A stretch of DNA of 64,000 bases from a virus, in the IMG/VR virus record IMGVR_UViG_3300029206_000002, one strand, 5' to 3'. Under the pieces are notes generated by a model. The model had not been told where the DNA came from, searched no databases, and saw only the letters and a list, made by a program, of their open reading frames with translations. Both the position numbers and the translations under genes were made by a program. Positions 3,301-62,529 of this stretch are shown piece by piece (position 1 is the first letter of the stretch; each line of letters begins with the position of its first letter).

Positions 3301-4408
3301 ATTTGCTTTTTAGACACAACCTTTGTATAAAGACTAGTTTGTTCCTTTGAAGGAAAACTTTACTGAAGCAATGTATGGGCATGTAAGTAATGGAGAAGCT
3401 GGATAGGTAGCATCTACAGTAAACGTTATGATTAAGATACCAGAATTTTGGTATGTCGATGATTATACTCCTGGTACAAAAACACACAATTTAAAAATAT
3501 GTCCACACGCTAAACCAGGATGGCATCACCACAAAGAAGCATATGTTAGCGCATATGAAGCATTCAACTTTGGTAATAAAGGTAGATTAATAAGTATGAA
3601 AAGCGTTGTTCCTACTGTTAATTTTACCAGAACTAATGGCAGAACTTGGGCTAGAGCTAATGGATTTGACGGAGAAGCTAAATGGAATCTTTATACATAT
3701 GAAGAACATAGAGCTATATGTCATTTGTTCTTAGTGGAATATGCTACTAGAAATTCACAAAAGGCTGTTAATACTGAACTAACTCCTGAAGGATTTAGAC
3801 AAGGTGGGTTAGGTTCTGGTTGTACTACAGGAACAGCAACTATCAACGGAGCTCAAACTTGGTCGTTTATTCCAACTGGAAGTTCTGATAGTTTAGGTAG
3901 TGGTTCTGGTGAAGTTACAGTAACTATACAATAGACTGATTCATCTGGTTCTAATACTTCTACTATTACACGTAAATGTAATAGATATAGAGGAATTGAA
4001 AATCCATTTGGTCATATATGGAAACACACGGATGATATAATTAGTATATACGAAGGCGACTGGAGAACTTATTATAAGTCTATAAAACCTGATCAATTTG
4101 CCACTAACAAAAATAATAGTTATAAACCTTTAACATCAGCAGCAGTTGTAACTGGTTATAAAACCGAAATTAGAGCTACTCCTACTTGTGATTTCTTCGC
4201 TGAAGCTTGTACTAATGGTTCAGAAACTACATACTGGTGTGATTATAACTGGGATAATACTGATACTTCAGAACACTGTTTGTTAATCGGTGGTGGCTCT
4301 GGCAGTGGCGGCGGGACGGGTCTGTTCGCTCTTCGTTCCGTTGCTGGGGTTGGTTATTCCGATGCTGATATCTGTTCTCGATTAACATATCTCCCGTGGG
4401 CGGAGTAA
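395..4408 (+). CDS. Large tail fibre or tail spike protein of 1,338 codons, read through about 16 in-frame TAG codons.
   Basis: ATG at 395. Track ORFs at 395, 1028, 2360, 2987 and 3428 all share frame 2 and are separated only by TAG. Read by eye, there is no TAA or TGA until 4406-4408. Fibre-type repeats are present (SKANVTSALGVDPTTTYVKKAGDTMTG, coiled-coil EQSLATLQSNIDKEAATARAAE). The C-terminus ends with a Gly-rich linker, GGGSGSGGGTGLFALRSVAGVGYSDADICSRLTYLPWAE. Confidence 0.75.
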
Positions 4409-4550
4409 TGACTTAATTATGCAATACGGTATAGTTAAGTAATACCCACAGGTTGCTTCTCTAGAATTGGGTTGGGTGTGCTTTGTTGGTTTTGGTGGGG
4501 GGGGGTGGGTTGGTGGCGCTGGACTAGCGGTTCGGTGGTGAAGTACTAAC
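4289..4550 (+). repeat. G/T-rich, adenine-depleted island spanning the 3' end of the fibre gene and the downstream spacer. It contains a G9 run at 4497-4505.
   Basis: Read directly from the sequence. The stretch gggttgggtgtgctttgttggttttggtgggggggggtgggttggtggcgctgg contains no A over roughly 55 nt, in a genome that is otherwise about 70% AT. Confidence 0.6.
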
Positions 4551-4571
4551 TACAAATATTATAGAAGAAAA

Positions 4572-4694
4572 ATGGCTAGCTATATAGGGTGGTTTAAACA
4601 CGCTAACTGTTATTCTTTACTTACTAAAACTATTAAACATAAAGAGCTATTAGATTACCTGGATATACGTAAAGGAAATAGAACATACGCATAA
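4572..4694 (+). CDS. Small hypothetical ORF of 40 codons (MASYIGWFKHANCYSLLTKTIKHKELLDYLDIRKGNRTYA).
   Basis: ATG to TAA open frame in a spacer. There is no other support. Confidence 0.2.
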   Translation: MASYIGWFKHANCYSLLTKTIKHKELLDYLDIRKGNRTYA

Positions 4695-4793
4695 TGAGTA
4701 CGTTATAGTTATATAATCGCAGAGACTTTAACATATGCTAGCAGTAATAAATATTGACTAGCATTTTTATTTCAGATAAAATTATTTTAAGTT

Positions 4794-5949: not shown

Positions 5950-6581
5950 ACTTTATAAGTCGAATAATTAAATCAATTAATGCAATGAGAGAAAGACTGA
6001 AAATAGAGCGTCATGAGGCTATGTATGGTCCACACTTTAATGAAGAATGTGCACTAAAAGCAGTCTCAAAGATGGAAAACGAAGATGGCTCTCGTGGAGA
6101 ACATTGGAGTTTAGAAGAAACTACTTCAATCGCTAACCAGTACGGAATCAATCTGAAAGGTGAGAAATACAACAAGTATGATTGGTACGTTGCTCTCAAT
6201 ATGATACGTTCAGACTATTATCGTGCAGTTGTTACTATGACAAGCAGTGATCACATTAAGTACTTTGTAGAACTAGCAAAAGCTTGGTTGAATGATAAAG
6301 ACATAGAAGAAGGAAAGATGTGGTATTACTATTGCTATATTATGTGTGATAAATTGCGCAAAGAAGCTAAGACGATGTTAATGCTTGAAGACGATGAAGA
6401 TGAAGAGCATGAGTATCGTTACGCTCGTAGTGGTAGAGGACGTGGAAGAGGTAGAGGAGGAAGAATGACTCGCTACGGTTATGACTATGACGAAGACGAT
6501 GAATATTTAGATCGTGAACGTGAAGAGGAAAGAATGCATAGATATGAACCTATGTATGAAAGAAGAATATCAAGATATTAA
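5946..6581 (+). CDS. Hypothetical protein of 211 aa with an RG-repeat and an acidic C-terminus.
   Basis: Intact track ORF ending at TAA. It contains SGRGRGRGRGGR. Confidence 0.5.
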   Translation: MNFISRIIKSINAMRERLKIERHEAMYGPHFNEECALKAVSKMENEDGSRGEHWSLEETTSIANQYGINLKGEKYNKYDWYVALNMIRSDYYRAVVTMTSSDHIKYFVELAKAWLNDKDIEEGKMWYYYCYIMCDKLRKEAKTMLMLEDDEDEEHEYRYARSGRGRGRGRGGRMTRYGYDYDEDDEYLDREREEERMHRYEPMYERRISRY

Positions 6582-6595
6582 TTTAATCAAAATTT

Positions 6596-7522
6596 ATGAG
6601 AACTATGTACGAACCTGAAAAAATTTTAGTACAAAACGCTGGTATAGATCCAGGTGTAGCTGCACTTTTGCAGAATGCAAACAAAGGTAATATGGACCCT
6701 GCTGCTCTTATGGCTATGATGAACAACGGCGGTTTCGGTGGAAACGGCGGTTGGTGGTGGATTTGGATCATCCTAATCTTCTTCTGCTGGGGCGGTTTTG
6801 GAGGCAACGGTTTTGGTAGAGGTAGTGATGATGCTAGTCGTCTTGCTTCTCAGTTAAATACTGATACTAATACAAGTCTGTTAATGCAGGCTATTCAAGG
6901 TAACAAAGATGCAATAAGCACTTTGTCTAATACTTTGAGTTGTGATATTAACGCTGTACAGACAGCTTTAAATACTATTAATACTAGCGTAAGTCAGATT
7001 GCTTGTGATACTAAATTAGCTAGCTGTGAAGTAATTAATGCTATTACTTCTGGTAATGCTAACTTGGCTTCTCAATTAGCTAACTGCTGCTGCCAGACTC
7101 AACGTTCAATTGACTCTGTTAATTTGAACTTGACTCAAATGAATGCAGACAATAGACTGTCTATCTGTCAGCAAACTAATACTTTGCAGAATGCAATCAC
7201 TGGTGGTTTCAATAACTTAATGACAGATAATGCTAGTAAGTTTAATGTAATTGGTGCTAAGATAGATGCGCAGACTCAAATGATTAACGATAAATTCTGT
7301 CAACTTGAAATGCGTGAAATGCAGAATAAGATTGACACATTGCGTGCTGAGAAGTCAGCTCTTGAATTAGGTCTGTCTCAATCTGCTCAAACTGCTAATA
7401 TAGTAAATCAGTTGCGTCCGTGTCCAGTACCTGCTTACTTAACTTGTAACCCATTCGGATGTAACGGTGGATTCACTGGTTACGGATACGGATATAACGA
7501 CGGTTGCGGTTGTAGTTGCTAA
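6596..7522 (+). CDS. Hypothetical membrane or structural protein of 308 aa with a Gly/Trp-rich transmembrane segment and Cys-rich termini.
   Basis: Track ORF containing GGFGGNGGWWWIWIILIFFCWGGFGGNGFG and ending in CNPFGCNGGFTGYGYGYNDGCGCSC. Confidence 0.5.
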   Translation: MRTMYEPEKILVQNAGIDPGVAALLQNANKGNMDPAALMAMMNNGGFGGNGGWWWIWIILIFFCWGGFGGNGFGRGSDDASRLASQLNTDTNTSLLMQAIQGNKDAISTLSNTLSCDINAVQTALNTINTSVSQIACDTKLASCEVINAITSGNANLASQLANCCCQTQRSIDSVNLNLTQMNADNRLSICQQTNTLQNAITGGFNNLMTDNASKFNVIGAKIDAQTQMINDKFCQLEMREMQNKIDTLRAEKSALELGLSQSAQTANIVNQLRPCPVPAYLTCNPFGCNGGFTGYGYGYNDGCGCSC

Positions 7523-7539
7523 TAAGAAAGGAGGTAATT

Positions 7540-7959
7540 ATGTTTAATCCTTTCTTTAACCCTTATCGTGTAAGACGTATTGATCAAGGTGGTATACCAA
7601 CATTAGATACTATATTCTCTAATGTAGATACTACTAACAATACTGTTACTTATGGAATATGTCCATTTCAATGGAGACAATTACCATGCAGAGGTTTAAT
7701 ATTGTTAAATATTAACCATACCGCTACTGGTGCAACAGAAGGATCATTAGTATCTGTAGCTACTTCTGTTAGTTCTAGTTAGGTATCATCTAATCCGACT
7801 AGTGTAAATACTAATAGTGGTAAAGCATTACTAAACGGTTCTGGTGATTAGATGCCAACAGAAGAAATTTCAACGGGTAATAAATATCTAATATACTATG
7901 ATAAACGTACTGGAGTATTTCAGACTGTAAATCATATTGTAGCACCAGCTGCTGCTTAA
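7540..7959 (+). CDS. Hypothetical small virion protein of 140 codons with 2 in-frame TAG.
   Basis: An SD-like aaggagg lies 8 nt upstream of ATG 7540. Frame 1 continues through TAG 7780 and 7849 to TAA 7957-7959. Confidence 0.5.
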
Positions 7960-7968
7960 TAAAAACTT

Positions 7969-7992
7969 AGGGCTACCGTAAAAGGTAGCCCT
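7969..7992 (+). terminator. Perfect 9-bp stem-loop (agggctacc gtaaaa ggtagccct) directly after the stop codon.
   Basis: Inverted repeat read from the sequence. No U-tract follows. Confidence 0.35.
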
Positions 7993-8043
7993 ACTAAAAC
8001 CAATTCAATTATGTTATTTAGTCAATTAAAAATAGGAGATCAC

Positions 8044-8589
8044 GTGCACGTATTGGAAGTTCTAGGAACTTTTAAAAAGACTACTGTTTATAGTCTTGGT
8101 TCTATTACCTAGGTTTCAAATCCTTATGATGAAGCTTTGCCGCAAGGTTAGTTTCCAATACCAGGATAGAACAGACGTAAATTAGTCGATGTATTTATTA
8201 GTTGTAATGGAGAATCTAAGAAACTATCAGTACCAGCTGAACGTTCAATAATCAACGATACTTCTATAGGACTTACTGTTGCTACCAACAAAGAAGAAAT
8301 AGCTAATATGGTTAGATAGAACTACAACGAATTCAAAGCTAAAAAAGAAGCAGCAAGTAAGTACGATGAAGAAATGGAGAAGTGTAAAGATATTCTAGAT
8401 CAACTAGAAGCACAAGTAGAAGTTCCTACAGTAACTAATACTGTTGATAATAGTAAAGAAATAAATGATTTAAAGAATGATGTAGCTGATATTAGGAAGA
8501 TGATAGAAGATGCTAAGAAGATGTTTATGGGAGGATTCCCAAAACCACCAATGCCACCTATGCCTAATGTACCAGCTCCAATGAAATAA
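8044..8589 (+). CDS. Hypothetical protein with a C-terminal Pro/Met-rich tail, 4 in-frame TAG, and a probable GTG start.
   Basis: Frame 1 is open from 8029 to TAA 8587-8589. An aggag motif lies 6 nt upstream of GTG 8044. The track ORF 8374..8589 is the C-terminal piece. Confidence 0.4.
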
Positions 8590-8600
8590 TACTCGGCAAC

Positions 8601-8720
8601 GCTCACAACGTTCGCTCACCTCTACGAGGCTCGCTCACTGTATAGTGGACGAGCTTTTGTTGTTTATGTATGTTAATAATATTTCCTCGCTTCGCTCAGA
8701 GTTCCTTCGCTTCGCTCGGA
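8601..8720 (+). repeat. Cluster of CGCTC-containing short repeats (cgctcac x3, cgcttcgctc x2) in a 260-bp noncoding spacer.
   Basis: Read directly. It is GC-rich relative to the rest of the genome. Confidence 0.5.
8629..8665 (+). terminator. Rho-independent terminator: an imperfect 10-bp GC-rich stem followed by ttttgttgttt.
   Basis: The stem gctcgctcac/gtggacgagc followed by a T-tract, immediately downstream of a gene end. Confidence 0.55.
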
Positions 8721-8852
8721 AAATTATTATAAAGCTTTTTAAGAAAGGCTATTAGTTTCTGTTAAGGAGTGTATCTAAGATACTATAAAAATTTACAGTA
8801 AGTCTTAAAATGCGTTTTATGACTATTATAATTATAATTTAAATATATAGAT

Positions 8853-9518
8853 ATGACATTAAATGAGCTCATTGATGATGTTCTATTAGAAGCTAGAAAC
8901 AACTAGATTGCTGAGAGTGAAAAGCTCAGTAGATACTAGATAATGTTGTGGATTAAAACATATCGAGCTTACCTATTAAAACAGAAGTTAGATAAGGGAG
9001 AGCAATTAGACTAGATCTTCTATTAGACTATACGCATGCATTTGGATAAAATAGAAGAAGATCCAGGTCATGCAGAATACCAAGGAGATAAAGAATTACC
9101 GACTTTACTTGGTACTAAACTTACTACTTCAGTAATAACAGTAAAAGATGCCTATGGTAATATTATTCAATTAGGTTCTGAAACTAAAATGAAATTCTAG
9201 AGATATAGAAAGTATACCTGTAAAGATTATATTGCATATGTTAAAGGTAATAGAATATATGTAGAAGGTGATGCTAACCAACTAGAATATATTGATGTAG
9301 AAATAATTGCTGAAGATCCTACTGAAGATAAACTGTGTTACAATCCTGATAAGGATGAATATCCTTTACCAGCTTATATGTGGGGTACAGTTAAGTAGTT
9401 AATATTTACTAAGGATTTCTTAACTATGAGATAGCAAGTATCTGATACTACTAACGATAGTAAGGATGATACTTAGAATGTAATGAATTAGAATGTTAAC
9501 AGAAGTATAAGACGATGA
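8853..9518 (+). CDS. Hypothetical virion protein of 222 codons with 9 in-frame TAG.
   Basis: ATG 8853. Frame 0 continues through TAGs to TGA 9516-9518, which overlaps the next ATG. Confidence 0.5.
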
Positions 9519-9982
9519 ATGAATTAAATAAATCAGCTAATAAAACGGTATCTTATACTATACCTTCATTCTATAACCATTACTTAAGTAGTATAGAACC
9601 AGATACAGTATACGATATAGATTATATTACTTATAGAAAGATAGTAACAGACTACTTTTATCACTTAAGAGATTAGTTATTAGAAGAAAGTAAAGAAGTT
9701 AAATTACCTTATAGAATGGGTAGTATTCAAATAGTAAAGAAACAACCTAAACATTTAGATGGTAGAAGTCTTAGAATAGATTATAAAGCTACAAAAGAAT
9801 TAGGTAAACTTACTTATTTACTTAACGAACACTCAGGATTCTATAAGTACAGACTTTACTGGAATAAATAGGACATGCTAGTGTCTAACAAAAGTAAGTA
9901 TTAGATTGTACTTACTAGAGCAAATAAAAGACATCTATGTCAATTAATTAAATCTAAATAGAAAGACTATGAAGAAATATAA
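9515..9982 (+). CDS. Hypothetical protein of 156 codons with 4 in-frame TAG.
   Basis: ATG 9515 in frame 2, ending at TAA 9980-9982. Confidence 0.45.
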
Positions 9983-10847
9983 TTTTAAAGAAGTTGATAA
10001 AATTGAAAAAATATCTGGAGTATATCAAATAGTCAACGAACTTAACGGACATAGATATATAGGTAGCTCTAAAAATATCTAGCACAGAATATTAACACAC
10101 AGATCTTCTCTTAGAAGAAATAACCACCATAGTATTTATTTACAGAACGCTTTTAACAAATACGGCGAGGATAAGTTTTATATACAGATTTTAGAAAAGT
10201 GTGAAAATGTTAGAAGCACTATTTTATTTTTAGAGCAAAAGTATTTAGATTTGAATCCTGAATATAATATTAGTGATACAGCTACTTGTCCTATAAATAT
10301 ATTACAAACAGAAGAAGTAAAATAGAAAAGAGCTGAAAAACTCAGAGGACAAAAACGTAATAAATAGCAAAAACAGAGAATTAGCGATGGAGCATTACAA
10401 GCTAAGCGCGGAATTCCAGTAAATTGCTATGATTTAGATGGAAATTATATTCGTACTTTTCATAGTTCTAGAGAAGCAGAACGTAGTTTAAATGGAAAAT
10501 TAAAAGGAGTTACAATAATAGGATGCTGTAAAAATAAAAATAAATCTGCATACGGATTTATGTGGAGATACGACAATGGAGATCATTCCAATATAGATCC
10601 TTATGAAAACAATTCTATTAATGCTATACAACAGTTTAAAAGACCAGTTTTACAATTAGACGATAATTATAATATCATAAATGAATTTGAATCAATATCT
10701 GACGCTTCTAGATATTTAAACAAACCATATGCTATAAGTAATATTGCTAGGTGTGCAAAAGGTTTTGTTAAACATGCTGTTGGATATATATGGAGATATA
10801 AAGATAAATTAAATAATAATATTCACGATTACGAATAGCAGCCATGA
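9969..10847 (+). mobile_element. Freestanding GIY-YIG homing endonuclease gene (I-TevI/Seg-like) with NUMOD-like C-terminal DNA-binding repeats. It has 4 in-frame TAG.
   Basis: The N-terminal motif ISGVYQIVNELNGHRYIGSSKNI-x-HRILTHRSS matches GIY-(10-11)-YIG...R...H. Frame 0 ends at TGA 10845-10847. It overlaps both neighbouring genes. Confidence 0.7.
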
Positions 10848-11773
10848 TATATAAAATGACAAGTAGTAAAGCCGTGATTGCTAAAGTAATTGCGGACTTA
10901 GGTTTAAATGAAACTGAAATACCTATTACAGACATCAAACAATGGATAGGAGAGAGTTTAATGAATATAGGTTCTGTCAATCAATTAGATCACAAAGTAG
11001 AAGTAATACCTATCAATGGTTATTAGGCTAAGTTACCATGTGACCTAGAAAGATTAAATAGTGTAGCTTACTCTACATGTGATTGTGGTGGTTGGATACC
11101 TATGAAAAAGAGTACTGGTACATTCAGTGTATATGATAAGAAAGATAACTGTGATTGTTGTAATATGATTATACACGATGATGTATTAATACCATTAGTA
11201 AAGAACCTTCACAATATTACTAAAGATAAAGACGCATTAGAAATACTTAATAAAGATACTAATACTAGATAGACACTTAGTGCATTAATTAATAATTATA
11301 CAGTTTGTAGCAAAAATGGTAGATTACAGCACACTAGTTTTAATGGTACTAATTTCAGTTATACGCCACAATATGATGTTAAACCAGGATATCTCATCTC
11401 AAACGTTCCAGAAGGATATGCGAAAATCTCATACCATGCTATCTATACTGATGAAGATGGCATGCCGATGATGCCAGATGTATAGTCTTACTTTGAAGCT
11501 TGCTTCTGGTACTGTGCATAGAAAATACTTTATATTAAGTATATAAAAGGAGAAGTACACAGATAGTTGTGGATAGATGCTAAGAACTCTTATAACTTCT
11601 ATAGAAAGCAAGCATATGCTGAATCTTTGATGCCTAATCAAGATGAATTGACTAATATTAAGTATACGTGGAATACATTAGTTCCAGAGATGGATGAAGA
11701 ACGTACTTTCTTTAGTACTACTGGAGATAGACAAGAAATTTATAATTAGAATTATAATAGACTATGGAGATAA
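10844..11773 (+). CDS. Hypothetical Cys-rich structural protein of 310 codons with 5 in-frame TAG.
   Basis: ATG 10844 in frame 2. Track ORFs at 10844 and 11567 are in the same frame. It ends at TAA 11771-11773. Confidence 0.5.
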
Positions 11774-14700
11774 ATAGCCAAGTAAATACATTTCAAGGGG
11801 GTATGAATATCGACAGTGATATTACTATGCTAGCTGATAACTAGTATAGATGGGCTGAGAATATTCGACTACTCACAGATAATGCTGGTACTACAGGTAT
11901 TCTATAGAATATAGAAGATGTAAGATAGTACGAAGGTGGTATTGAAGCATCTGAAAATATACTTGGTACAGCAGTAACTAGGTGGTACAATTCTACTAAG
12001 AAGATAGTAGAAGAATGTGGTATAGTAGTTACTATGGAATTGTATGAAGGAACTTATATTAATAATATATGGGCTATAACTGATTTCAACAGTATTAAAC
12101 CTACTTGGACTTTAGTAGTATCTGCTGTTATGAATCTAGTTAATAAAGTAGCTATCGTTACTAATTATGAGTCAGATAAAGTAAGCAAGATATATATATC
12201 TGATGGCACTTCTTCTATTAAATGCATTAATATATCTGCTCAATATAAGACAGATAAAACTAACCACATAGAAGATGATACTTACTTTGATCTATTACCC
12301 AGTTCTACTATTGCACCGTTTAAGTTTATTGAATTGACATCTGGTAATTTACCAGCTGGTATGATACAATATTGTTATCAGTTATTCAGTGTACATGGTG
12401 GAGAAACATCTACTTCTTCATTAAGTTCTATGATACCTATATCATCTAGCAATTCAAATTCATCTAAAACATTTAAAGGTGATAGACAAGGTGAGAGTAC
12501 AGATAAAGGTTGCATGTTACAAGCTACTTTGTTCAATGATGGTAGATTTGAAAAGATAAGAATTATTAGTATTCAATATACTAGCAATACTCAAACTCCT
12601 AAGATATATGTAATTAATGAATTGGACTTACCTAAATCTGAGGATAATGTAATAACATTTAATTACAATGATGTTGGTAGTAGTTATGTTAACGAATTAA
12701 GTATAGAAGAATTTAACGATCTTGTCCCATTTGAATTTAATGCTAAAAGTATAGCAAAAATGGACAATAGGTTGTTTGCTTCTAATGTGCAGGAATTAAC
12801 TTGGGATGTAGATTATGATGCTAGAGCATATAGATGTAATAGTAATGGTATTATTAAATTAAACTCTAGTATAAGTAATCAAGATATTACTACTACTTTT
12901 CAAGAACTAACTAGTCCAGAAACAGATTTAGTTATACCAGAAGAACACGATTGTATAAACCCAATGAATAGTTCAATGGTGTATCCTAATAATTCAACAG
13001 ATGAATATGCATTTGGATATGATGATAATGGAATTATTAGAGGTGGTAGAGGTTTAAATATTAGTTATAGATTTATTATAACAGATTTAATAGAGTCTGA
13101 CAATACTCCAGTAGTTGACGATGAAGGTGATAAATTTGTACCATATAGTATGAGCTTATCATCATCTAAAAAATCTTATAATACTATTAAGTTAGTATGC
13201 CCTGAAACAAAAGAATTAGTACATACATTTAATAGTGATGGTAAATCTAGAATAAGAAACTATTGTGATCCTTACTATGTATCTAATTTCTTAAGTCATC
13301 AAAGAGATGAAGTATATAGATATGGTATAATATTATATAACAATAAGAATATACCTTCTCCTGTACATTGGATTGGAGATATTAGATTCCCTTCTGCTGA
13401 TGTTGAAGGTTATGAACCTTTTACTTTTGGCGGAACTGTAGACGGATCTGGTAATTACGAATTAGTATCTCATCCACTTGGTATAATGTTCTATGTGAAT
13501 AATCTTCCTACTGATGTAGTAGCCTATGAAATAGTAAGATGTGACAGAACATTAGCAGATAGAACAATAGTTACTTAGGGACTACTAAACAGAACTATTA
13601 GATTCAACGGGTGGTACAATAATACTGAAGATTATAGAGCAGAATACTCTTTAGGTAGCATAGATAGAAGACCTACTATTATGCCTACTTTTAAAGAAGG
13701 CGTAGCTCCAGAATTTGTACAAGGGTTCTATAATTCAAGTAAGAATCTATTTGTACAACAAGATGCTTAGGATTAGAATCCTTTTGATACATATGGTATA
13801 TTTGATTTAGTGACAGCTGATATATGTTTTAATAAAGAGAAATCAGATCAGATTGTTACTAGTGGTATGAGTATTGTGCCATTATATTGTGCACACTCTG
13901 CTACATACTGTAATGACGCTAACAACAAGCATTATAGATTAGGTATACCGTTTACTAAAGTATTAGGAAAAAGTACTAATAATGTACAAAATCCATTTGG
14001 TGGACCTGTAGAATATTCTGAACATACTGGTAATAAACCTAGTGCTTCTTAGGGAGTATTCGATGGTTATGAACAAGATGGTGATATGGTAAGCGGTGGT
14101 ATATGTAAATACTATCAATTCTTTGGTAAGAATTATGCTCACAAAGATAATTCTAATTTGCGTCAATCTTTCCCTATAAAAGATGTAACTAAGCCAACTA
14201 ACATATCTCCATATCAAGAAGCGTTTGATGCCAAACAAATAGTAGATTACATAGACAGATTTGGTTTTGTAAACTATAGTATTGGTTCTAGAGAAGCTCT
14301 TGGTCCTCACGGAGTATGTTTAGCTATTAGTGCTCCAGACGTATACTCTGGTAATTATACTGGAATTCGTACTACCCCTCTATTAAGGAAATATAGACAT
14401 AATGCTGTACTGTTTGTTAATATAAAGAAAAACACTACGTAGTATGGTGGTAATACTTTTATGAGTAGAAGTTATTCTATATATAACAGTACTAATACTT
14501 ATGTTAAAACATCTTGGGAAGGATATGATAAAGCAATGTGCTTTGGTGGTGATACATATTTAGGAGTATTAGACTATACTCATACTATGTTATTTACTAG
14601 AAATGATCCGGATGATAGAAATGGTTTTAAGCGATATGTTGGAGCTTATATTCCACTAGAATCTAGTATAAACCTGTACTATAGAAATGATGAACATTAC

Positions 14701-25700: not shown

Positions 25701-28700
25701 TAAAACAATATCCATATTTAAAAGATGCTTCTAAACAAGAAGTAGAAGAAGCTCTTGCTGAAGAATTCAGACAATATATGCTAAATGAAACCAAACCATC
25801 TATAGCATATAGAATTAAGAAATTATTTAATGCAATACTTAAAGTATTAGGTATTACTAGGAATGGAGATTTAGTAAGAACTTTATTTAATAAAATACGC
25901 AAAGGAGAATTTTCAAAATATAAACCATCTAAGTCCACATTAGAAGATTTTGAAAAAAGATTTGGCGGTACATTGTACTATTACGTTCCAGGAGTAGAGG
26001 ATAAAGAATTAAAGAAAATGGCTTCTATAGCAGATGCTACTACTTTCTATGCAGTAGTAGACTCTTTAAATGCTACAGTAATGGATACATTTAATATTAG
26101 TAGTATAGAAGATTTACAGAGCTTACCTAAAAAGATTAATGATATATTCGATGATATTCTAACTACCAACTTAGAATTAGGAATGTATGATGAATCCCAA
26201 GAACAACTTATCAAAGATGTAATCAACAACAAAGAAGTATTCAAGAAGCAAATAGACGATTACTTAAGAAACTTTAGTATTATTAAAAAGAATACTGAAG
26301 AATCAGAAGAACAAGAAAGAGAAGAAAGAGAACTTGGAGATAATCCTGATAATACTTGGGATAAAGAAAGTTATACAATAAGTAAAAAAGCTAATGTGGC
26401 TTTCAAAGCAAAACTATTCTTTTATTCTATACCTAAAACTAAATATGAATTTGATCCAGAAACAGGTAATAAATACTTAGTAGAAGAGGAGGATGACTTG
26501 TTGATGACTACTAGATCTGAAGATTTTAACGTTGTGTGGAATAAGATATTAGAGAATCTGTGGAATGTTGAAAGTTATTTAGACCTAGTAGATAAGTGCT
26601 ATAATCTTGGTAAGGTAGATCCGTTCTTTATGACTGTATATAATAAGTTAACTTCAAAAGATGATCCTATTGATGAAGTCACTTAGACTCAAATATTAAA
26701 TACAGTTAAAAGTGCAAAAAATAGTTTAACTGCTATAATTGTAGAAAGAAAGTAGATACCTTTTACGTAGAGAGGATCTGATGAACAAATAGAATATGCT
26801 ACACAAGAATATTCTAATAAATTAAAATGGAGAATTCAGAATTCTGATGTATATAGAAAGATAAGTAGATTACCAAAGAAATGGTCGCAATAGTTCTTCT
26901 TGTCAGATTTAATTGATGTTAATGAAGATGGTACTAGAACTATAAATCAAGATAAGTTTCATTCTGCTGTGTGGAAACATAAAATATTAATAGATAATGT
27001 ATTAAAAAAGAAAGATAAAACTTTGGATGATTATATTAAAGTTAGATCTAATTTTATAGATATGTGTAATAATCTATCTATTAATATGGATGATTTAGCA
27101 TTAGACTATTTACTTACTAATGGAACAGGTTAGCCTAACATGCAATCATTTGAGAATTTCTGGAGATCTACAAATGCTAGTACTTCTTTAACTAAAAGTA
27201 TATTAAATAATATTAATATTGCTGCAATCAGAGGTACAAGTAGTATAAAATCTAGAAGTGGAGAAACTGCTAGAACATTTGATAGAATATTTACTAGTAG
27301 AAAACCAGATGCTTAGATAAATCTAATGGCTATAGCTTGGGGTAGAACACACCCATCTCCAGAAGAATTTAGTGTAACTGGAGCGGATGGTAATCTAGTA
27401 TATCCTATTACAGAGAATAATTATATGTCAGACCAAATAAGATGGTTGAAATATAATTTAAATGGTAAGAGAGAATTATTAGGTAAAAATCCTTACTCTG
27501 CAAATTCTTTGTTGTTACAGTCTATAAATAGTAATGCTGATTTAATTAAATTAAATACTTATCTAAACTTAGAAGAGAATCTGCAAAACACTAATCGTGA
27601 TTACTTTGGTATATCTCCTATAGAGGATTACTTATCTAAAATGACATTTGGATTTAATAATCACTTATTTTGTCCTACTATGTCTGATAAAAAGACATGG
27701 CACACTATAAGTGGTATTCAAATGGTCAAGGATTTCTTACCATCTACAGCTATCACTGATTACGAATACAATGAAAACGGAGATATAACTAGAGTTATAT
27801 TTTAGGATCAAAAGAGAAGATTCTCAGATAGAACTTTAAATATATTCAAAGGATATTTAAGAGATGAATATAATGCTATATAGAAGTATTTTGCTACTAA
27901 ACAAAGTGTTATAGATAATCCCAATCTATCTGTTGGTAATTACTATGGTAGTAAAAAAGGTAAATACGCTGATGGTAATGGTGGAAGATTTAGATATTTT
28001 AATAAGATAACCATTAATGGTGATACTTATAATTTAAATGAAATTCTAGCTAAAGCAGAATATTCTAATGACTCACAATCTATACAAGATATTCTTAATG
28101 TAATCAAATAGGCATTAGATAACGATACTGTAATTAAGGAAGCTATCAATGATTTATTAGTAGGTTATGTAAATAATGAAATATCAAAAGCTGTAGAGTT
28201 AGGTGTAATAGGTGAAGACTTAAGTAATAAGTATATACCTATAAACTTTGTAGAAGAATTTGAAAAAATAAGTTCTAAAACTGATAGTAGAGATAAAGGA
28301 ACAGATGTGATATACTCTATCATAGCTTCACATGCCATCAACAGTGCGATTTCTACTATAGAAATAGAGAAATGTTTTACTGGAGATCCAGCATTATATA
28401 AATGGCAAAAAGAACTTATGGTATATAAGCCCAATGATGATTCATTTGTGCCTGTTATATCAGATGAAAGAACATTAGAAGCTTGGATAGATAAACATGA
28501 CCCAGATGGAGATAAATCAAGTTATTCTGCTTATTATATGATAACTGGTAGAGATGTAGATAAAATTAAACGTCTATCTTCAGTATTGTCTACTGGAACA
28601 AACTTGAGAACTAAATGGGGAGATACTAAGGATTAGGAAGATAGAAGTGATTCTAAATTCCAAGTATTATAGTTATCAGATAATGAAATAGGATCTACAG

Positions 28701-39897: not shown

Positions 39898-40776
39898 TCA
39901 CGCTGCATTACAACATTCACAATCGTCATATACATCATTACATTCGTCACAGTCATCACATTCATCATCGTATTCTACAGTATCACTAACTTTAGTTGGT
40001 ATGTTTTCAGTAGAGATATTCATAATGTTTATAATTTCCTGAAGGCTAATGTCTTCATCTTCTAGCATTTTGACTTCACTCATGAAAGAAACAATGTTAT
40101 CCATAGAAAGCAGTTTAATATTTTCTTTACAGAATTTTACCACTTCTTCTTTGTTCTTAATACCAAAATCATCAGCTATCATAGGTAAGAATGCAGCATT
40201 TTCATCAGGAGAATATCGACGTAAATAACGAACACGTGAACAACGATCTTGCATATACTGACTAACTTGGCTTAAGTCATTGCAAGTCATAATTACTAGT
40301 TTCTGTGCAGTCTTTTCAACTCCATCTAAGAAATCTAGCATATACTCAGTTTTGAAGTTCTTTTCAACTTCGTCAAACAAAACACATACTGGAGTAGTAA
40401 AGGACTTAAAAAACTTAATAAGTTTACCTTCTGGATAATCAGGATTAACTACAATAATAGGTAAACCTGATTCTTTAGCTAATATTTTTGCCATTACAGT
40501 CTTACCTGTACCTTTAGTACCAGCTAGCATTACACCAGTAGTATTTGTATTTGCTTTATTAAAATAGGTTATAATACGCTTCTTAAATACGTCATCAGTT
40601 TTAGTAGAATAGATTTTCTTTGGTAGATTTAATTCACCATTCTCCTTAAATATAGGTGAATCTTCCCATCTATTCCAACTCAGATCATATACTTTACCAG
40701 GTATCAAATCATAATCAGCACCTTTAGGTTTTGCAATTATCTGTTCTCCTATTTTAATAAATTCATTCTTTGCCAT
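39898..40776 (-). CDS. AAA+ ATPase with a Cys/Asp-rich C-terminal tail.
   Basis: Walker A GTKGTGKT and Walker B VLFDEVE. It ends in DDECDDCDECNDVYDDCECCNAA. Confidence 0.65.
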   Translation of the reverse strand: MAKNEFIKIGEQIIAKPKGADYDLIPGKVYDLSWNRWEDSPIFKENGELNLPKKIYSTKTDDVFKKRIITYFNKANTNTTGVMLAGTKGTGKTVMAKILAKESGLPIIVVNPDYPEGKLIKFFKSFTTPVCVLFDEVEKNFKTEYMLDFLDGVEKTAQKLVIMTCNDLSQVSQYMQDRCSRVRYLRRYSPDENAAFLPMIADDFGIKNKEEVVKFCKENIKLLSMDNIVSFMSEVKMLEDEDISLQEIINIMNISTENIPTKVSDTVEYDDECDDCDECNDVYDDCECCNAA

Positions 40777-42440: not shown

Positions 42441-42530
42441 GCTACTAGTCGTGGAATCGAACCACGCCTATCCAGAGATAGATTTTTATTTCTGCTGTGC
42501 AGGCTCACGCTTCCATAAATTATCTAATAT
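42441..42530 (-). ncRNA. tRNA-like element with a canonical T-arm (GGCGTGG TTCGATT CCACG) and a 3' acceptor strand. The 5' half cannot be folded by eye.
   Basis: Minus-strand T-loop TTCGATT with a 5-bp stem. A potential aTCTAtc loop (CTA) lies upstream but has no pairing stem. Intergenic between minus-strand genes. Confidence 0.35.
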
Positions 42531-42584
42531 CCTTAAATTGATAGTGCCATATAGGATTGTAACAGATCCTCCTAGTAGTTGAAA

Positions 42585-43382
42585 CTATTCTTCTTTATTA
42601 AATAGTTTCGATATTCTCTTTATAGTTCGTTCTGCATCTTCATCAGTTAAAGCTTCACCTGTCTGAATGTAGATATCAGAAGTTGTTTCTTTCTTCATTG
42701 GTCTAACTGAATGTCCGTATCCCCAATTCATTTTAAATTTAGCATTCCAGAATTTAAACATCCAGTATCTAAAGAACCAAGGAGATATTGCTGTAAGTAT
42801 TTGTCCTTTGATTAAAGGATCTTCAAACTTTTTAATTATAACTTCAACTCCAAGAAATCCTATAGGTTCTCCGTTAAAATAACCAGGATCTTCATTATCT
42901 GCATATGCAGATATTTGAACACGATATCCTTGGGATTCTAGCATATCTATTATTCTCATAGCAGTATATGCACGAATCATAAGATTTTTAGCTGAACACC
43001 AGCAATTCTCACATATAGAAATATGAAGTTTAACGAACTTACCAGTACCTATACCATGTGTAGGTATTCTTTTCTTTAGGCAAGGTAGACCTTCTATGTA
43101 CCGATCAAAGTTCATATCATCTCCATCAGAATCATCGTACTTATATTTATGTTTACGACCTCCTAGATTTATATCCTTTTCTATTTTCTTTAGATTATCT
43201 AAACCTTTGGTATAACTATATTTAGAATCATGTATTTCTGCTGTAGATAATCCTCTAAAACCAGGGTCATCGTGATTTTCAATATTATCTATTTCAGCAG
43301 GATTACCTCCTTCAATATTGTCACATTCTCTGTAAAATTCATCTAATGAATTTATATTAATGTTTAAATTCAGTTTTTTCAT
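42585..43382 (-). CDS. Hypothetical protein of 265 aa.
   Basis: Intact ORF. Confidence 0.5.
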   Translation of the reverse strand: MKKLNLNININSLDEFYRECDNIEGGNPAEIDNIENHDDPGFRGLSTAEIHDSKYSYTKGLDNLKKIEKDINLGGRKHKYKYDDSDGDDMNFDRYIEGLPCLKKRIPTHGIGTGKFVKLHISICENCWCSAKNLMIRAYTAMRIIDMLESQGYRVQISAYADNEDPGYFNGEPIGFLGVEVIIKKFEDPLIKGQILTAISPWFFRYWMFKFWNAKFKMNWGYGHSVRPMKKETTSDIYIQTGEALTDEDAERTIKRISKLFNKEE

Positions 43383-44761
43383 TACGCTGCCGTTTTAAAT
43401 TTTGTTGTTGCAGTAGAATTTAAAAAATCTTTACGTATAGATTCAATTATTGAAGCAGTACTTTGTTTAGTTTTATTTTCTTCTACTTTTTGAATATATT
43501 GTTTTACTATATTCTTTTCAGTATCAGACCAGTTAATAATAAGCATATCTTTCCAGTCTAACATACCTACTTTCTTCATCTTTTCTGCTGCTTGAATCAT
43601 ACGAGTAGATGCAATACGACGTAATGAATTTGTTTTAATGCAATTACGTAGTAAATAAATATAATCTACTACTTCTTGATCAAATTGTGACTCATATTTA
43701 ACAGAGTAATTTACTTCAATTATTGCTCCAGTAAAACGGTCAATTGTTGAAGCATCTAGTTGGTTATTAGCAACATACTGACGGTCTGCTCCATTACCAA
43801 AAGTATTTGATGTAGCAATAATAATACATTCAGGATGTCGTAAGACAGTACCTGTAGTAGTCTCTATTTCACCGTTTGCTAATGCTGCATTAATAACCTG
43901 TGCTACAGATGGATCGAGCGCAGTCATCTCATCTATAAGGATTATTGACTTCTTAGCATAGAATTCAGCAAACTTAGTTGCTTCACGAGTAGGATATTTA
44001 TATCCTGTAAATTCTGTTGCAGAAGTACCAATACCACAAGAAATACATAAGTAAGGAATATCTAGTTCTTTAGCTGTATTACGAGCTATAGTTGATTTGC
44101 CACAACCAGCTGGACCAACCATCCAGATGTTATTCATACCTGCTTTAATTAAACTTTTAAGCTTGTCTTCTGGTTCTAGTGAACTAAATGAGAATTGAAT
44201 TTTCTTTAATTCTTCTTTTTCCTTTTCTTTTTCCTCTTTCTTTTTAAATTCTTCTTTTAATTTGTTAAGCAATTCTTTGATTTCTGTTTTGCTTCCAAAT
44301 TGTTCTAGTGATTTTTTCTCTATTTGTTTCTTTTTTTTGAGATCTGTTATATTAGCTATTTTAATAGCTCCACTACACACTTTGTACTCTTGTCCAGTAC
44401 AATTTGTAATAGTATATTCTCGAGATTGTCCTCTCTTTCCTTTTACTTCTGAAGTTAATACTAAGAAAATACCTTGTTGTGCTTGTTGTTTTCCTTTAGA
44501 ATTATTATATTTTATACTACCATAAAATCTATTTCCAGGCTTTAAATCATGAACATCTGTATTATGATTAACTAAGGTGCTATCTTCATATATATTGTCT
44601 TCTTGATTTTCAATTTGTTCATCATGCTCTGTAGCTTCAGATGCATCAGTATCTTGAGTTTCTGTAGTTAAATCTTTAGGATCTTTTAGCTTCTGTTCTT
44701 TTGCACTAGACTTTGCAGGTTGATCTTTTTCTATATCTTGAATATGTTCTATTTCTACCAT
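43382..44761 (-). CDS. AAA-type ATPase with a long acidic N-terminal region.
   Basis: Walker A GPAGCGKST and Walker B IILIDEM. Confidence 0.6.
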   Translation of the reverse strand: MVEIEHIQDIEKDQPAKSSAKEQKLKDPKDLTTETQDTDASEATEHDEQIENQEDNIYEDSTLVNHNTDVHDLKPGNRFYGSIKYNNSKGKQQAQQGIFLVLTSEVKGKRGQSREYTITNCTGQEYKVCSGAIKIANITDLKKKKQIEKKSLEQFGSKTEIKELLNKLKEEFKKKEEKEKEKEELKKIQFSFSSLEPEDKLKSLIKAGMNNIWMVGPAGCGKSTIARNTAKELDIPYLCISCGIGTSATEFTGYKYPTREATKFAEFYAKKSIILIDEMTALDPSVAQVINAALANGEIETTTGTVLRHPECIIIATSNTFGNGADRQYVANNQLDASTIDRFTGAIIEVNYSVKYESQFDQEVVDYIYLLRNCIKTNSLRRIASTRMIQAAEKMKKVGMLDWKDMLIINWSDTEKNIVKQYIQKVEENKTKQSTASIIESIRKDFLNSTATTKFKTAA

Positions 44762-44841
44762 GATGATTTGTTTTAATGATTAAAAAAGAATAAGGGTAGC
44801 TTTTACACTACCCTTATTTATTAATAATGATCTACTTTATA

Positions 44842-46902: not shown

Positions 46903-47886
46903 TCAGCCTTTTTTAATTTGTTTAAATACTACTTTTTGTTCTTCAGCACTTGCAGTATTTGTTTCAATTAGATTGCCATATTGAAGTTCGTTTTCAAATT
47001 CTAATATACAGGGTTCACCATCTCTTACTTTTAAGAAATGCATATAAACCTTATTTTTTACAGGTAGACGACGTACTCCATATATAGCTAGATTAAGTAT
47101 CTCTGGTCTGTGAACAGCAATAACAAAATCACTAGCTTGAAATATTGCATCAGATGCTGATAAATCACTTCTCATTGGAAAGTGAGTGCTTGGATTATTA
47201 ATTCTATCAGGACTTTCAATATTACGATTCATCTGTGAAAGCTGTATTATACTAGTATTAGAAAGTTTTTTCTTCTGTATAAACATTTTCTGTAAATCGA
47301 CTATTGTACTTCTTTCTCCACCTTCTCCATTTACTAAGAGAACATGGTCTAATACTACTATTAGCCAACGACCGTTAGCTACAGTATTATGAAAGTAATC
47401 TATAGTATTACCTATTTCTTCTACATTACATACTTTATCAACAAAGTATATATTGTATTTCTTAATGGTTTCAGCTGCCGATTCAGCTTTTAATAAGTCT
47501 TCATCACTAAGTGTTTCTACTGAACTATATAATTCAGATACAGTTTTCTTAGTTTTATTACTTATTACACGACCAACATTTCTGTAGTCTACCATTTCTA
47601 AACTAAAGTATAATACTACGATATCCTGATTAGGATTAAGATCAATCAAATCCATTACTAACATATTTGCAACTGAGCTCTTACCACTACCTGATATACC
47701 AGCTATAGTAAATATCATATTTGGTTCAATTCCACCAGTGGCTTTATTGAACTTATCCCATCTGGTTTTTAATGATACTATACTATGATTTTTTCTAGCT
47801 TTAATGTAGTTTATGGATTTATTTGCTACCTGAGATATTGACTCAAAAGGTAGTATTTTAACGGCATTCTGTTCCGTATTCTCCAT
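46903..47886 (-). CDS. DnaB-like replicative helicase (RecA-fold C-terminal domain).
   Basis: Walker A AGISGSGKSS and Walker B LIVVLDH. Confidence 0.6.
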   Translation of the reverse strand: MENTEQNAVKILPFESISQVANKSINYIKARKNHSIVSLKTRWDKFNKATGGIEPNMIFTIAGISGSGKSSVANMLVMDLIDLNPNQDIVVLYFSLEMVDYRNVGRVISNKTKKTVSELYSSVETLSDEDLLKAESAAETIKKYNIYFVDKVCNVEEIGNTIDYFHNTVANGRWLIVVLDHVLLVNGEGGERSTIVDLQKMFIQKKKLSNTSIIQLSQMNRNIESPDRINNPSTHFPMRSDLSASDAIFQASDFVIAVHRPEILNLAIYGVRRLPVKNKVYMHFLKVRDGEPCILEFENELQYGNLIETNTASAEEQKVVFKQIKKG

Positions 47887-48478: not shown

Positions 48479-50632
48479 TTAAAACAACGTTAGTTGTCTT
48501 GGTTTTAATTCTTCAACGATCTTTAACGCTTCCTTTAAATAGTAGCGATAATTGATCTTTCTTTCTTCTATAGGTTTATTATCAAATTTATTTAGTATAG
48601 TAACACCAGATGCAGTAAGTAGATTAGTATAGTCTACTCTAGTACCTTTAGTTATAATCTTTGAACTATAAGGTAATATCTGTTCTACATTAGAATTATA
48701 GTAAAACTGATTTGAATCTGTAGTTATTATACTTTCTCCTGTTTTGAGACATACAAGATATTGCGGTATCTCAACATCTCTATTTACTATTTTACATTTA
48801 TATAAATAAGGACCATTAGTAGATGCATAGAATCTATTGATTCTTTGTATCAGTTCTCCATTATATTCTACAGAGAATTTCTTATCTACTTTCTGGTAAG
48901 TAAGGAACTTCTTAATATCTTTACAATTGTAGATAGTATCTTTTACAGGAATACCATCAACAAAATAATCTCTAATAGCTTCTGGAATAATCTTTGCAGA
49001 CATTCCCTTACCAAGTAAAACCTTAGTAATAAACATACCTTTTTCTTTAATATAATCATCTTTAATCATATCTAAAGAAGTATAAGGCTTCTTTTTTTTA
49101 TTTAGAGCTTTTTCTGGTTCAGTTTCAAACAATTTCTTCATTGCTTGATAACCTTCTTTTACAGCTATATAATCATTAATAGCATACTGATACATAGCTT
49201 CAAAACGATCTTCCTCTAGGGTTAGTCTCGTTTGTTGTTCCCATTCCTTACATATACTTTGTAATTTTTCATACAGATTCTTCTTAAGAAGAACAAATAA
49301 ACCATCTGTATTTGCCTGTACTATTCTACAGCCAATATCAGATAATCTTTCTGCTAACATAAGTAGTAGTAATTGTCCGTTTATTCTAATCTGCATTACT
49401 GCAAATGGACTATAACAGAAATTATGTTCATTCTGTAGATTACCACTAAGACCATTTAATGCTAACTTAAGAGTTTTATCTTTAGTCTTAATACCGTTAT
49501 GTTTTGCTTCTATTCGTTCATCTTTAACTTGATTATAAACTTCTAGAAATTCAGGACCCAAATGTTTTGGGTAGAATTTATACTCTATTATCATACTAGG
49601 ATACAGAGATGCAACATCAATATCTATTAACATTTCATCTTCCCTAGGAACAATTATCTCAGGTTTATTTTCAGAGTGAATACCACCAACTCCTACAGAA
49701 TATTTTAATCCTCTAAATACGAATTTGTTTTCATATCCTTTTCTACCTGGTGATACTATCTGTTTCTTCATATCAGATAGTACATTACGAAGTATAGGAT
49801 CTTTATATTCTATATAAGGCAATATTACTTTGTTTAGGTCTATAACATCTGCTGGGCTTCTTAAATCTTTAATATCCCACCATGATAAACCAGTCTTTTC
49901 AAGATATTTCTGCGTTAGAATTTTCATTCCAATGTTTACTCCATCTTTACTTAGTACTCTTACTTTATATTCATCTTCGATAGCTATTCTTAATTCTATA
50001 TCTTCAGAACACAGATTTAATAATTTTTCAGTAGAATTAACGTCATTCACATTATACTCAATCATCTCTTCTATTCTATCTTCTTCTAGAAACTTATTAA
50101 AGTCTCCATTAAATTCTAGAACATTAGGATATTGCATAGTTACTTGCATTTCCTTCAATCCAACACGCAATTTCTGTGAATATAACATAGTAAGTATATC
50201 AAATGAATCATACCATACTTGATATTTCCATTTTTTCCACGCTTCTATGTTGTCATCTGCTTGAGATGTAGTTATAGTTCTACTTAAGTTAAAAATACTA
50301 TCACATATTCTTAGATATGGTTTATTTTTAAGTATATCATAATAATCTATTATATAGTTAATAATAGGATTATCATAATGTAAATTATTATATCCTGCAA
50401 AGATTTTATTTGAATCAATTTGAGTTTCAGTAGTATAGAGATCTCCAAATTTTAATGGTGCATTAATATTTGGTACACGAAAGAAATCAACTAATTCTGA
50501 TAATTGATCTTTTCTGCTTGATATCTCAAATTTATGAAACTTCCCTGATTCAGTATTCTTTGCTGTGCAATGAAATACATTTGGGAAAACTTCAATATCA
50601 TAGACATATACTGTTTTTCCTCTTATCTTCAT
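48479..50632 (-). CDS. Family B DNA polymerase.
   Basis: Exo I YDIEVFPN, Exo II YNNLHYDNPII, Exo III YNVNDV, motif A DVASLYPS, motif B KLALNGLSG and motif C ANTDG are all present in the canonical order. Confidence 0.8.
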   Translation of the reverse strand: MKIRGKTVYVYDIEVFPNVFHCTAKNTESGKFHKFEISSRKDQLSELVDFFRVPNINAPLKFGDLYTTETQIDSNKIFAGYNNLHYDNPIINYIIDYYDILKNKPYLRICDSIFNLSRTITTSQADDNIEAWKKWKYQVWYDSFDILTMLYSQKLRVGLKEMQVTMQYPNVLEFNGDFNKFLEEDRIEEMIEYNVNDVNSTEKLLNLCSEDIELRIAIEDEYKVRVLSKDGVNIGMKILTQKYLEKTGLSWWDIKDLRSPADVIDLNKVILPYIEYKDPILRNVLSDMKKQIVSPGRKGYENKFVFRGLKYSVGVGGIHSENKPEIIVPREDEMLIDIDVASLYPSMIIEYKFYPKHLGPEFLEVYNQVKDERIEAKHNGIKTKDKTLKLALNGLSGNLQNEHNFCYSPFAVMQIRINGQLLLLMLAERLSDIGCRIVQANTDGLFVLLKKNLYEKLQSICKEWEQQTRLTLEEDRFEAMYQYAINDYIAVKEGYQAMKKLFETEPEKALNKKKKPYTSLDMIKDDYIKEKGMFITKVLLGKGMSAKIIPEAIRDYFVDGIPVKDTIYNCKDIKKFLTYQKVDKKFSVEYNGELIQRINRFYASTNGPYLYKCKIVNRDVEIPQYLVCLKTGESIITTDSNQFYYNSNVEQILPYSSKIITKGTRVDYTNLLTASGVTILNKFDNKPIEERKINYRYYLKEALKIVEELKPRQLTLF

Positions 50633-61734: not shown

Positions 61735-61762
61735 ACTTTTTGTTTTTAATTTTGATAATTTG

Positions 61763-61836
61763 TAATACTAATAGGACTCGAACCTATAACTCAACCTTAT
61801 CAGTGTTGTGATGTTACCCGTTACATCCATAGTATT
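61763..61836 (-). tRNA. tRNA-Ile (anticodon GAU), 74 nt.
   Basis: A cloverleaf was folded by eye. The acceptor aatacta/tagtatt is a perfect 7 bp. The D-arm is gatg-taacgggtaa-catc with GG. The anticodon loop is ctGATaa. The T-arm is atagg-ttcgagt-cctat. There is one A.G mismatch at the base of the anticodon stem. Confidence 0.7.
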
Positions 61837-62056
61837 TCTTAACCAGCTTTTTACGACATTAGCTTAGCCGTTGACTTATCATATCACGCTGCAATATGAG
61901 TATAGTCTGTTACAAAAGATTTGTCATTTCTGACGTTATTGACCTATTCATTACTGTTTCTGCCAATCAATACATACATACCCCCTTGTTATTATTCTAT
62001 AGTGGAGGTAGAGTCGGCGAAGACTCGTCTTGCTCAGGCATATAATGACCTAACAG

Positions 62057-62443: not shown

Positions 62444-62529
62444 TATACTCTTTTAGTAGTATAGAGAGTGATCAAACTCTCTATACTTGATATGTAATCC
62501 TAAAGTAATAGTATATACTGTTGATTATG

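Follow-up and report, generated by a model that had tools for sequence, protein, structure and literature searches.

Among GIY-YIG homing endonucleases, two systems from phage T4 and its relatives lie closest to the gene considered here: I-TevI, encoded inside the T4 td intron, and the SegA-G endonucleases of T4-like phages, which home without any intron and bring about marker exclusion. I-TevI couples an N-terminal nuclease through a flexible linker to C-terminal DNA-binding modules, and its DNA-binding region is made up of a zinc finger, a minor-groove helix and a helix-turn-helix. Seg genes are freestanding between essential genes, vary in presence among close relatives, cluster their alternative insertion points in one gene block and have left evidence of co-converted flanks. 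Selfish open reading frames (ORFs) bearing the reassigned stop codon of their phage have been described too: Agate phages carry a group I intron endonuclease with an in-frame TGA, from which a delay until late infection was inferred (Borges et al., 10.1101/2021.08.26.457843), and Delta-group crAss-like phages have TerL inteins with multiple TAG codons (Yutin et al., PMC7886860). The subject of this analysis is an ORF at 9969-10847 of a 64,000-nucleotide stretch (hereafter the window) of the IMG/VR virus record IMGVR_UViG_3300029206_000002. By sequence and fold comparison it is very probably an active homing endonuclease gene of the I-TevI type, freestanding in the manner of the Seg genes and lodged in a late tail operon that reads TAG as glutamine (Gln), in a crAss-like phage of the Suoliviridae.

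The original prediction, made from the bare sequence, had proposed a GIY-YIG homing endonuclease gene with four in-frame TAG codons inside the late module, and that is what the locus contains: one intact frame with matching profiles, in which TAG stands at exactly four places, codons 38 (10080-10082), 119 (10323-10325), 133 (10365-10367) and 290 (10836-10838). The homology on which that prediction had staked itself is present in profile, sequence and fold. Pfam returned GIY-YIG (PF01541; E=9.2e-9, 35.9 bits with a cut-off of 22.6) and two stretches of NUMOD1 (E=4.3e-13), together with two matches under their cut-offs, SegE_GIY-YIG (0.0078) and the I-HmuI NUMOD-like family at residues 237-275 (22 bits, cut-off 27); PHROGs gave 'homing endonuclease' families (1e-25). 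The N-terminal 100 residues align with I-TevI (1MK0/1LN0) at about 35% identity (phmmer, E=1.5e-9), with R40, H44, E89 and N100 falling on I-TevI R27, H31, E75 and N90, and Y19 and Y30 on the tyrosines of its GIY and YIG motifs; across 38 homologues the catalytic residues are invariant or at least 90% conserved. An AlphaFold2 model was built on a metagenomic database protein 98% identical to that of the window (P0001) and has a mean predicted local distance difference test score (pLDDT) of 89. Confidence is highest over residues 1-100 (92-98) and falls away in the C-terminal tail, a predicted disordered stretch (mean of 43 over the last 12 residues, below 50 at 289-292). Searched with Foldseek, the model found first the I-TevI catalytic domain 1LN0/1MK0 (template-modelling score 0.86-0.88, root-mean-square deviation 1.3-1.6 Å) and next the GIY-YIG domain of UvrC, with a weak match between the C-terminal modules and the DNA-binding part of I-HmuI (1U3E). 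The protein thus shares with I-TevI its catalytic fold and residues and its order of nuclease, linker and DNA-binding modules, but its gene lies outside any intron, has two NUMOD1 modules and uses TAG as a sense codon.

That TAG is a sense codon is evident from the ORFs of the window, which has a G+C content of 31%. Every large ORF of the plus-strand block at 395-37458 has many in-frame TAGs, the largest (4441 aa) having 60, and the minus-strand ORFs at 37493-63414 are almost free of them; counting TAG as sense raises the coverage of the plus strand by long ORFs from 23.9 to 41.6 kb. The closest public genome, CrAssphage cr6_1 (NC_055894; Suoliviridae, Bearivirinae, Afonbuvirus), is about 96-97% identical to the window and collinear with it, a set of insertions and deletions apart. 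Between the late genes of the two, TAG is kept at 143 positions and is paired with CAG 17 times, with CAA six times and with other codons four times; since 23 of these 27 changes are to CAG or CAA, TAG encodes Gln, a reading with which the presence of a tRNA(CUA) in cr6_1 agrees. Codon 6 of the gene for the muzzle protein (11779-11781), CAA in the window and TAG in cr6_1 within an otherwise conserved N-terminus M-E-I-N-S-Q, is a clean single-site case of this reading. A TAG-to-Gln recoding limited to late genes is on record for Delta-group crAss-like phages (PMC7886860), and metaproteomics is reported to have validated such recoding in late genes (PMC9523058).

The endonuclease gene keeps to the usage of the block in which it sits. 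Of its 17 Gln codons 4 are TAG (0.24), and its density is 1.37 TAGs per 100 codons; the corresponding values are 0.30 and 1.48 for the late block, 0.03 and 0.10 for the early one. Its own TAGs occupy variable polar positions, and relatives, both orthologues and paralogues, have TAG at the family-conserved Gln59. At codon 136 the window and one relative (L004) have CAG and two others (L005 and L006) have TAG, an interchange from which it follows that TAG codons form in situ. Read with the standard code, the gene would stop at the first TAG as a fragment of 37 aa (9969-10082), and standard-code gene calling would fragment the gene accordingly.

It could be objected that the four TAGs are genuine nonsense mutations and the ORF a decaying pseudogene. 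The standard code does split its 5' end into pieces of at most 37 aa, and selfish endonuclease genes often decay once fixed. Yet in-frame TAA and TGA are absent where about 21 would be expected from composition (P=2e-10; not one of 20,000 shuffles was free of them), the density of TAG equals that of essential late genes, every catalytic residue is kept, and orthologues are intact at 50-64% identity. The copy in L005 differs by 41 synonymous and 15 non-synonymous changes, giving a synonymous divergence (dS) of 0.30, a non-synonymous divergence (dN) of 0.021 and a dN/dS ratio of 0.07, comparable with that of the flanking genes and indicative of purifying selection. Together with the TAG/CAG swap at codon 136, these observations leave decay a very improbable account of the locus.

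The gene interrupts a junction that is closed in most close relatives. By blastn, 8800-9953 and 10807-11776 are contiguous in cr6_1, where the upstream neighbour (a small gene here called gene X) and the downstream gene for tail Ring protein 1 overlap by ATGA; the window therefore carries an 853-bp insert. In cr6_1-type phages the empty junction reads …CACAAATAATTAAATAG followed directly by AATATTCACGATTACGAATAGCAGCCATGATA…, and the final 34 nt ahead of the Ring-1 ATG are identical in the window and in the empty-site alleles. These nucleotides encode N-I-H-D-Y-E-TAG-Q-P-stop, the C-terminus with which gene X ends in cr6_1, and in the window the former 3' end of gene X provides the last 13 codons and the stop of the endonuclease gene. 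Being read in the endonuclease frame, this remnant supplies the endonuclease with the stop of gene X, its ATGA coupling to Ring 1 and one TAG, that of codon 290, which was not brought by the cassette. The left end of the insert gives gene X a new tail, K-S-K-Q-K-D-Y-E-E-I-stop, whose D-Y-E codons (GAC-TAT-GAA) contain the ATG of the endonuclease. A similar wiring is seen one gene further on in cr6_1, where the GIY-YIG gene gp32 at the Ring-1/muzzle junction starts with a copy of the first four muzzle codons (M-E-I-N). The original prediction of ATGA overlaps with both neighbours is borne out only in part: both are overlapped, and the downstream junction is a true ATGA (Ring-1 ATG at 10844-10846, endonuclease TGA at 10845-10847), but the upstream one is a 14-nt overlap (9969-9982) in which gene X ends with TAA (9980-9982), the letters ATGA at 9969-9972 being out of frame for gene X.

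With so precise an empty site, the ORF is best described as a freestanding selfish insertion, as had been proposed. A competing architecture is an endonuclease encoded within a group I intron, the neighbours being exons of one split gene. RefSeq notes on relatives do label the homologues 'intron endonuclease', and group I introns occur commonly among Delta-group crAss-like phages (PMC7886860). Neither the whole window at the Rfam gathering threshold nor 9400-11900 at E≤1 yielded a match to a group I or group II intron model. (The sole Rfam match at E≤1 in the latter interval was a chance hit to DGCR5, E=0.59, irrelevant to introns.) In genomes lacking the endonuclease, gene X and Ring 1 are two distinct genes, each complete, with an ATGA overlap, Ring 1 spans its Pfam profile from 1 to 272 of 272, and the ORF overlaps the coding sequence of both neighbours, so that no room is left for an intron structure. 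An intron is accordingly very hard to credit, and because the gene is freestanding the 'intron endonuclease' notes on its relatives are misleading. As regards a promoter or terminator of its own, a sigma-70 promoter scan of 8600-12000 gave 24 sites, within the expected range of 20±4.8, in a scheme that does not model Bacteroidota or phage promoters, and a terminator scan of the same interval gave one terminator-like site, inside Ring 1.

Comparison of the site among related phages that lack the gene, which the original prediction had suggested as a means of defining it, gives a picture of polymorphism. We classified 68 close IMG/VR relatives in which Ring 1 is at least 89% identical and both the X/Ring-1 and the Ring-1/muzzle junctions are readable. 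Both junctions are empty in 53 of them. The gene of the window (type A) is present in two, plus one partial contig, and a different GIY-YIG gene, 38% identical (type B), occupies the X/Ring-1 junction in four. At the Ring-1/muzzle junction nine of the 68 are occupied, three by the cr6_1 type (cr6_1 gp32 being 39% identical to the window endonuclease) and six by a fourth type. Mutual exclusion of the two junctions was considered and set aside: no genome has an endonuclease gene at both, but chance alone predicts no more than about one such genome. More distant Suoliviridae have GIY-YIG genes between Ring 2 and gene X and HNH genes upstream of Ring 2, and with endonuclease sites all around Ring 1, gene X and Ring 2 this small block of tail genes is thus a hotspot for freestanding endonucleases.

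Several further mobile genes were observed in and around this block. HNH genes with zero or one TAG lie directly upstream of Ring 2 in L090 (1791-2369) and L003 (cr52_1; 1114-1692). L007 and L008 have a TAG-free GIY-YIG gene between Ring 2 and gene X (3965-4753) and a second one between gene X and Ring 1. The type-B-like ORF at the X/Ring-1 junction of L013-L016 and L007 (about 3977-4657 in L013) is open for some 225 codons with no ATG near its 5' end, and may use a non-ATG start or be translated by continuation from gene X. Elsewhere in the region shared with cr6_1, the window lacks every endonuclease gene of that phage and has its own single one at X/Ring 1: 40493-40503, 47677-47682 and 61952-62372 are empty sites where cr6_1 carries gp43 (which there splits an AAA ATPase gene), gp52 and gp71. 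A tblastn search of the window with eight cr6_1 mobile-element proteins found just the gene described here and a 50-aa remnant of an intron reverse-transcriptase ORF. The latter corresponds to gp25 of cr6_1, a group II intron-type reverse transcriptase (94135-95428) in which TAG makes up 10 of 14 Gln codons; it is absent from the window (about 4468-4691), where the last 50 codons of its ORF are 100% conserved at 4542-4691, so that either an intron remnant persists or the cr6_1 ORF has been over-extended.

Two kinds of comparison speak to the history of the gene, one to its recent movement and the other to its age. Against IMG/VR contig 3300045988_090319 (L004), the tract 9851-10932 has four mismatches in 1082 bp, all at 10343-10360, and the flanks differ by 3-11%. 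Such a tract fits the pattern that gene transfer with short co-converted flanks would be expected to leave and, with the dN/dS of 0.07 and the CAG/TAG interchange at codon 136, indicates a gene that is probably functional and recently mobile. On the longer time scale, orthologues in distant Suoliviridae, 64%, 51% and 50% identical in global alignment, occupy the X/Ring-1 junction too and keep the 14-nt overlap (in L102 and L104-L107 the last position of gene X is 3014 and the first of the endonuclease gene is 3001). They have 4-9 TAG codons of their own, in some cases as codon 2, and the proteins of gene X and Ring 1 beside them show 51-65% identity to their counterparts in the window. Type B has diverged in the same manner: between L072 and cr52_1 or L013, gene X is 55-57%, the endonuclease 54-57% and Ring 1 49-55% identical. 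In the window and L072, by comparison, gene X (93%) and Ring 1 (96%) are nearly the same and the endonucleases are 38% identical. Because each lineage has diverged about as much as its flanks, both A and B must have long been tied to the X/Ring-1 junction in phages of the same code, and both remain polymorphic within genera. The original prediction had offered two alternatives, that the gene had long resided in a recoded lineage or that it came from a phage using the same code; the orthologues argue for the first and the exchange with L004, a same-code relative, for the second.

A recent arrival from a standard-code phage or a bacterium, with TAGs that are very recent mutations, would require a different history. 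GIY-YIG endonuclease genes do move widely, and distant homologues occur in Bacillus, Escherichia and Flavobacterium phages. No homologue above 40% identity was found in a collection of 50,697 phage records, the best matches all being crAss-like, and a metagenome protein database held P0001 (a cluster of 91 sequences) and graded full-length homologues at 70-40% identity. Every homologue above 40% identity comes either from the X/Ring-1 junction of Suoliviridae or from a crAss-like phage, orthologues have TAGs of their own, the TAG share of the gene is that of the late module, and its dS relative to L005 (0.30) is no smaller than that of the flanking genes (0.20-0.24). An origin of this kind is therefore exceedingly unlikely.

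More serious is the possibility that the nuclease has been domesticated, and owes its retention to some service to the phage, for example the exclusion of co-infecting relatives or late DNA processing, and not to homing alone. The strong purifying selection, the conserved overlap architecture and the way in which lineages A and B have each diverged, across genera, about as far as the tail genes beside them all sit comfortably with such a role. Set against this, the gene is missing at the X/Ring-1 junction in about 90% of close relatives and is thus dispensable, GIY-YIG genes of different lineages take each other's place at this junction and at adjoining ones, the short nearly identical tract looks like a signature of transfer, and marker exclusion by homing endonucleases is already part of the selfish model. 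We regard a beneficial role as unlikely on balance. The interpretation as a mobile, code-dependent homing endonuclease gene has its own difficulties. Flank-like divergence under strong purifying selection would also fit a nuclease of benefit to the phage; ordinary homologous recombination, with no endonuclease action, could yield the same tract in L004; no suppressor tRNA was found in the 64-kb window, whose sole tRNA is a tRNA-Ile(GAU) at 61762-61836 on the minus strand (cr6_1 encodes a tRNA(CUA) at 25904-25977, in a part of its genome outside the coverage of the window); and the late-side endonuclease genes gp03, gp16 and gp23 of cr6_1 contain no TAG at all. TAG is therefore no general requirement for endonuclease genes in the late module, and its content varies among the mobile genes of that module, from zero in these three to ten in the reverse transcriptase.

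As a homing endonuclease gene, the element would work as follows. During mixed infection, the enzyme would cut the X/Ring-1 junction region of an endonuclease-less relative, and repair of the double-strand break would then copy the gene and a few hundred bases of flank from the carrier: intronless homing, as by the Seg endonucleases of T4. Because TAG codon 38 precedes the catalytic Arg40 and Glu89, full-length protein would be made only after a phage tRNA(CUA) decodes TAG, so that the nuclease could act only in the late, recoded phase, and only in hosts under infection by a same-code phage. Expression would then be confined to late infection. Since its place in a late operon already points that way, recoding would add a second lock and not be the sole one. 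The TAGs themselves would have arisen in place, by CAG-to-TAG change during long residence at the junction. More speculatively, the X/Ring-1 junction might be a very old balanced locus with three states (lineage A, lineage B and empty), each lineage staying polymorphic within every genus and both being TAG-dependent, at which the altered code acts as a timing lock and a containment barrier. We advance this idea tentatively and think it rather doubtful; if true, the lock would restrict cutting to late infection, when template copies are many, and the barrier would confine selfish endonucleases to phages of the same code.

The features of the locus and its surroundings are collected in Table 1. 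Ring 1 is followed by the gene for the muzzle protein (1392 aa), orthologues of which carry crAss_MUZ domains.

Table 1. Positions in the window of the endonuclease gene, its parts, its neighbours and other features.
Feature	Position	Strand	Basis or remarks
GIY-YIG homing endonuclease ORF ('type A'), 292 sense codons, TGA stop	9969-10847	+	Frame, Pfam, PHROGs, fold
Catalytic GIY-YIG domain, aa 1-100	9969-10268	+	G17-V-Y19, Y30-I-G32, R40, H44, H53, E89, N100
Lys/Arg/Gln-rich linker, aa 101-150	10269-10418	+	Holds TAG 119, TAG 133 and variable codon 136; pLDDT 64-76
Two tandem NUMOD1-type modules, about aa 149-205 and 222-283	10413-10817	+	NUMOD1 matches; pLDDT >90
853-bp insert (endonuclease cassette) relative to the cr6_1 empty site	9954-10806	+	AATTAAAT microhomology at both ends
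Remnant of the original 3' end of gene X, 41 nt, N-I-H-D-Y-E-TAG-Q-P-TGA	10807-10847	+	Now the endonuclease C-terminal tail
crAss tail Ring protein 2	8853-9518	+	PF25702, 2e-70
Gene X, 155 aa, function unknown	9515-9982	+	phrog_12177; last ~10 codons from the cassette side
crAss tail Ring protein 1, full length	10844-11773	+	PF24228, 7.7e-110, profile 1-272 of 272
Ring-1/muzzle junction, empty in the window	11764-11773	+	Other GIY-YIG gene in cr6_1 and 9 relatives
RAGATH-7-assoc RNA and RAGATH-9 RNA (structured, function unknown)	62326-62453, 63612-63757	-	Rfam; early non-recoded block

Other differences from cr6_1 lie further afield. A 2.1-kb segment at 6384-8506, with about 22 bp common to both edges, is not in cr6_1; it has ORFs at 6596-7522 (308 aa, Gly/Cys-rich, without TAG or Pfam match), 7540-7959 and 8011-8589, the last with orthologues upstream of Ring 2 in other relatives (for example L086 and L087). 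On the minus strand, 42466-44806 and 48508-50568 include a window-specific 2.3-kb segment with a DUF7192 protein and an AAA ATPase, and the DNA polymerase region of the window cannot be aligned with that of cr6_1, which suggests module replacement in the replication block. Near the tRNA-Ile, the two RAGATH RNAs matched at the Rfam gathering level with 139.6 bits (RAGATH-7-assoc) and 122.6 bits (RAGATH-9).

Much of what is seen here has precedents. Like the Seg genes, the window gene stands freely between essential genes, varies in presence among close relatives, has alternative insertion points clustered in one gene block and may have co-converted flanks; unlike them it belongs to a Crassvirales phage of Bacteroidota, overlaps both neighbours and borrows their start and stop context, and would need TAG suppression. 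The 'homing endonuclease' genes of RefSeq Suoliviridae (cr6_1 gp32, cr114_1 gp025, cr52_1 gp29, and those of cr113_1 and cr56_1) are 35-40% identical to it and lie in the same tail block, those of cr52_1, cr113_1 and cr56_1 at the very same X/Ring-1 junction; cr6_1 gp32 has 2 TAGs, cr114_1 gp025 has 6 and cr52_1 gp29 has 9. Type A (292 aa) differs in having no counterpart above 40% identity in the collection of 50,697 phage records, and is found in metagenome data (P0001, L004-L006). With the Agate endonuclease and the TerL inteins it shares the property of a selfish ORF bearing the reassigned stop codon of its phage, but it differs from the Agate case as a freestanding GIY-YIG gene inside the late module with TAG-to-Gln recoding, and not an intron ORF in an early gene. 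Endonucleases at these junctions (in RefSeq Suoliviridae), inteins with TAG and the argument that a recoded stop delays expression are therefore already known; the borrowed start and stop architecture, the hotspot of four lineages around Ring 1 and the two lineages diverging in step with their flanks are modestly new.

Knowledge of homing endonucleases and of recoding is left unchanged by this locus, which confirms that mobile endonuclease genes in recoded phages adopt the code of the phage. Its value lies in providing a clean natural set of filled site, empty site and donor-like tract, which could be used for testing whether reassignment of a stop codon gates the activity of a selfish nuclease and keeps it from spreading beyond phages that share the code.

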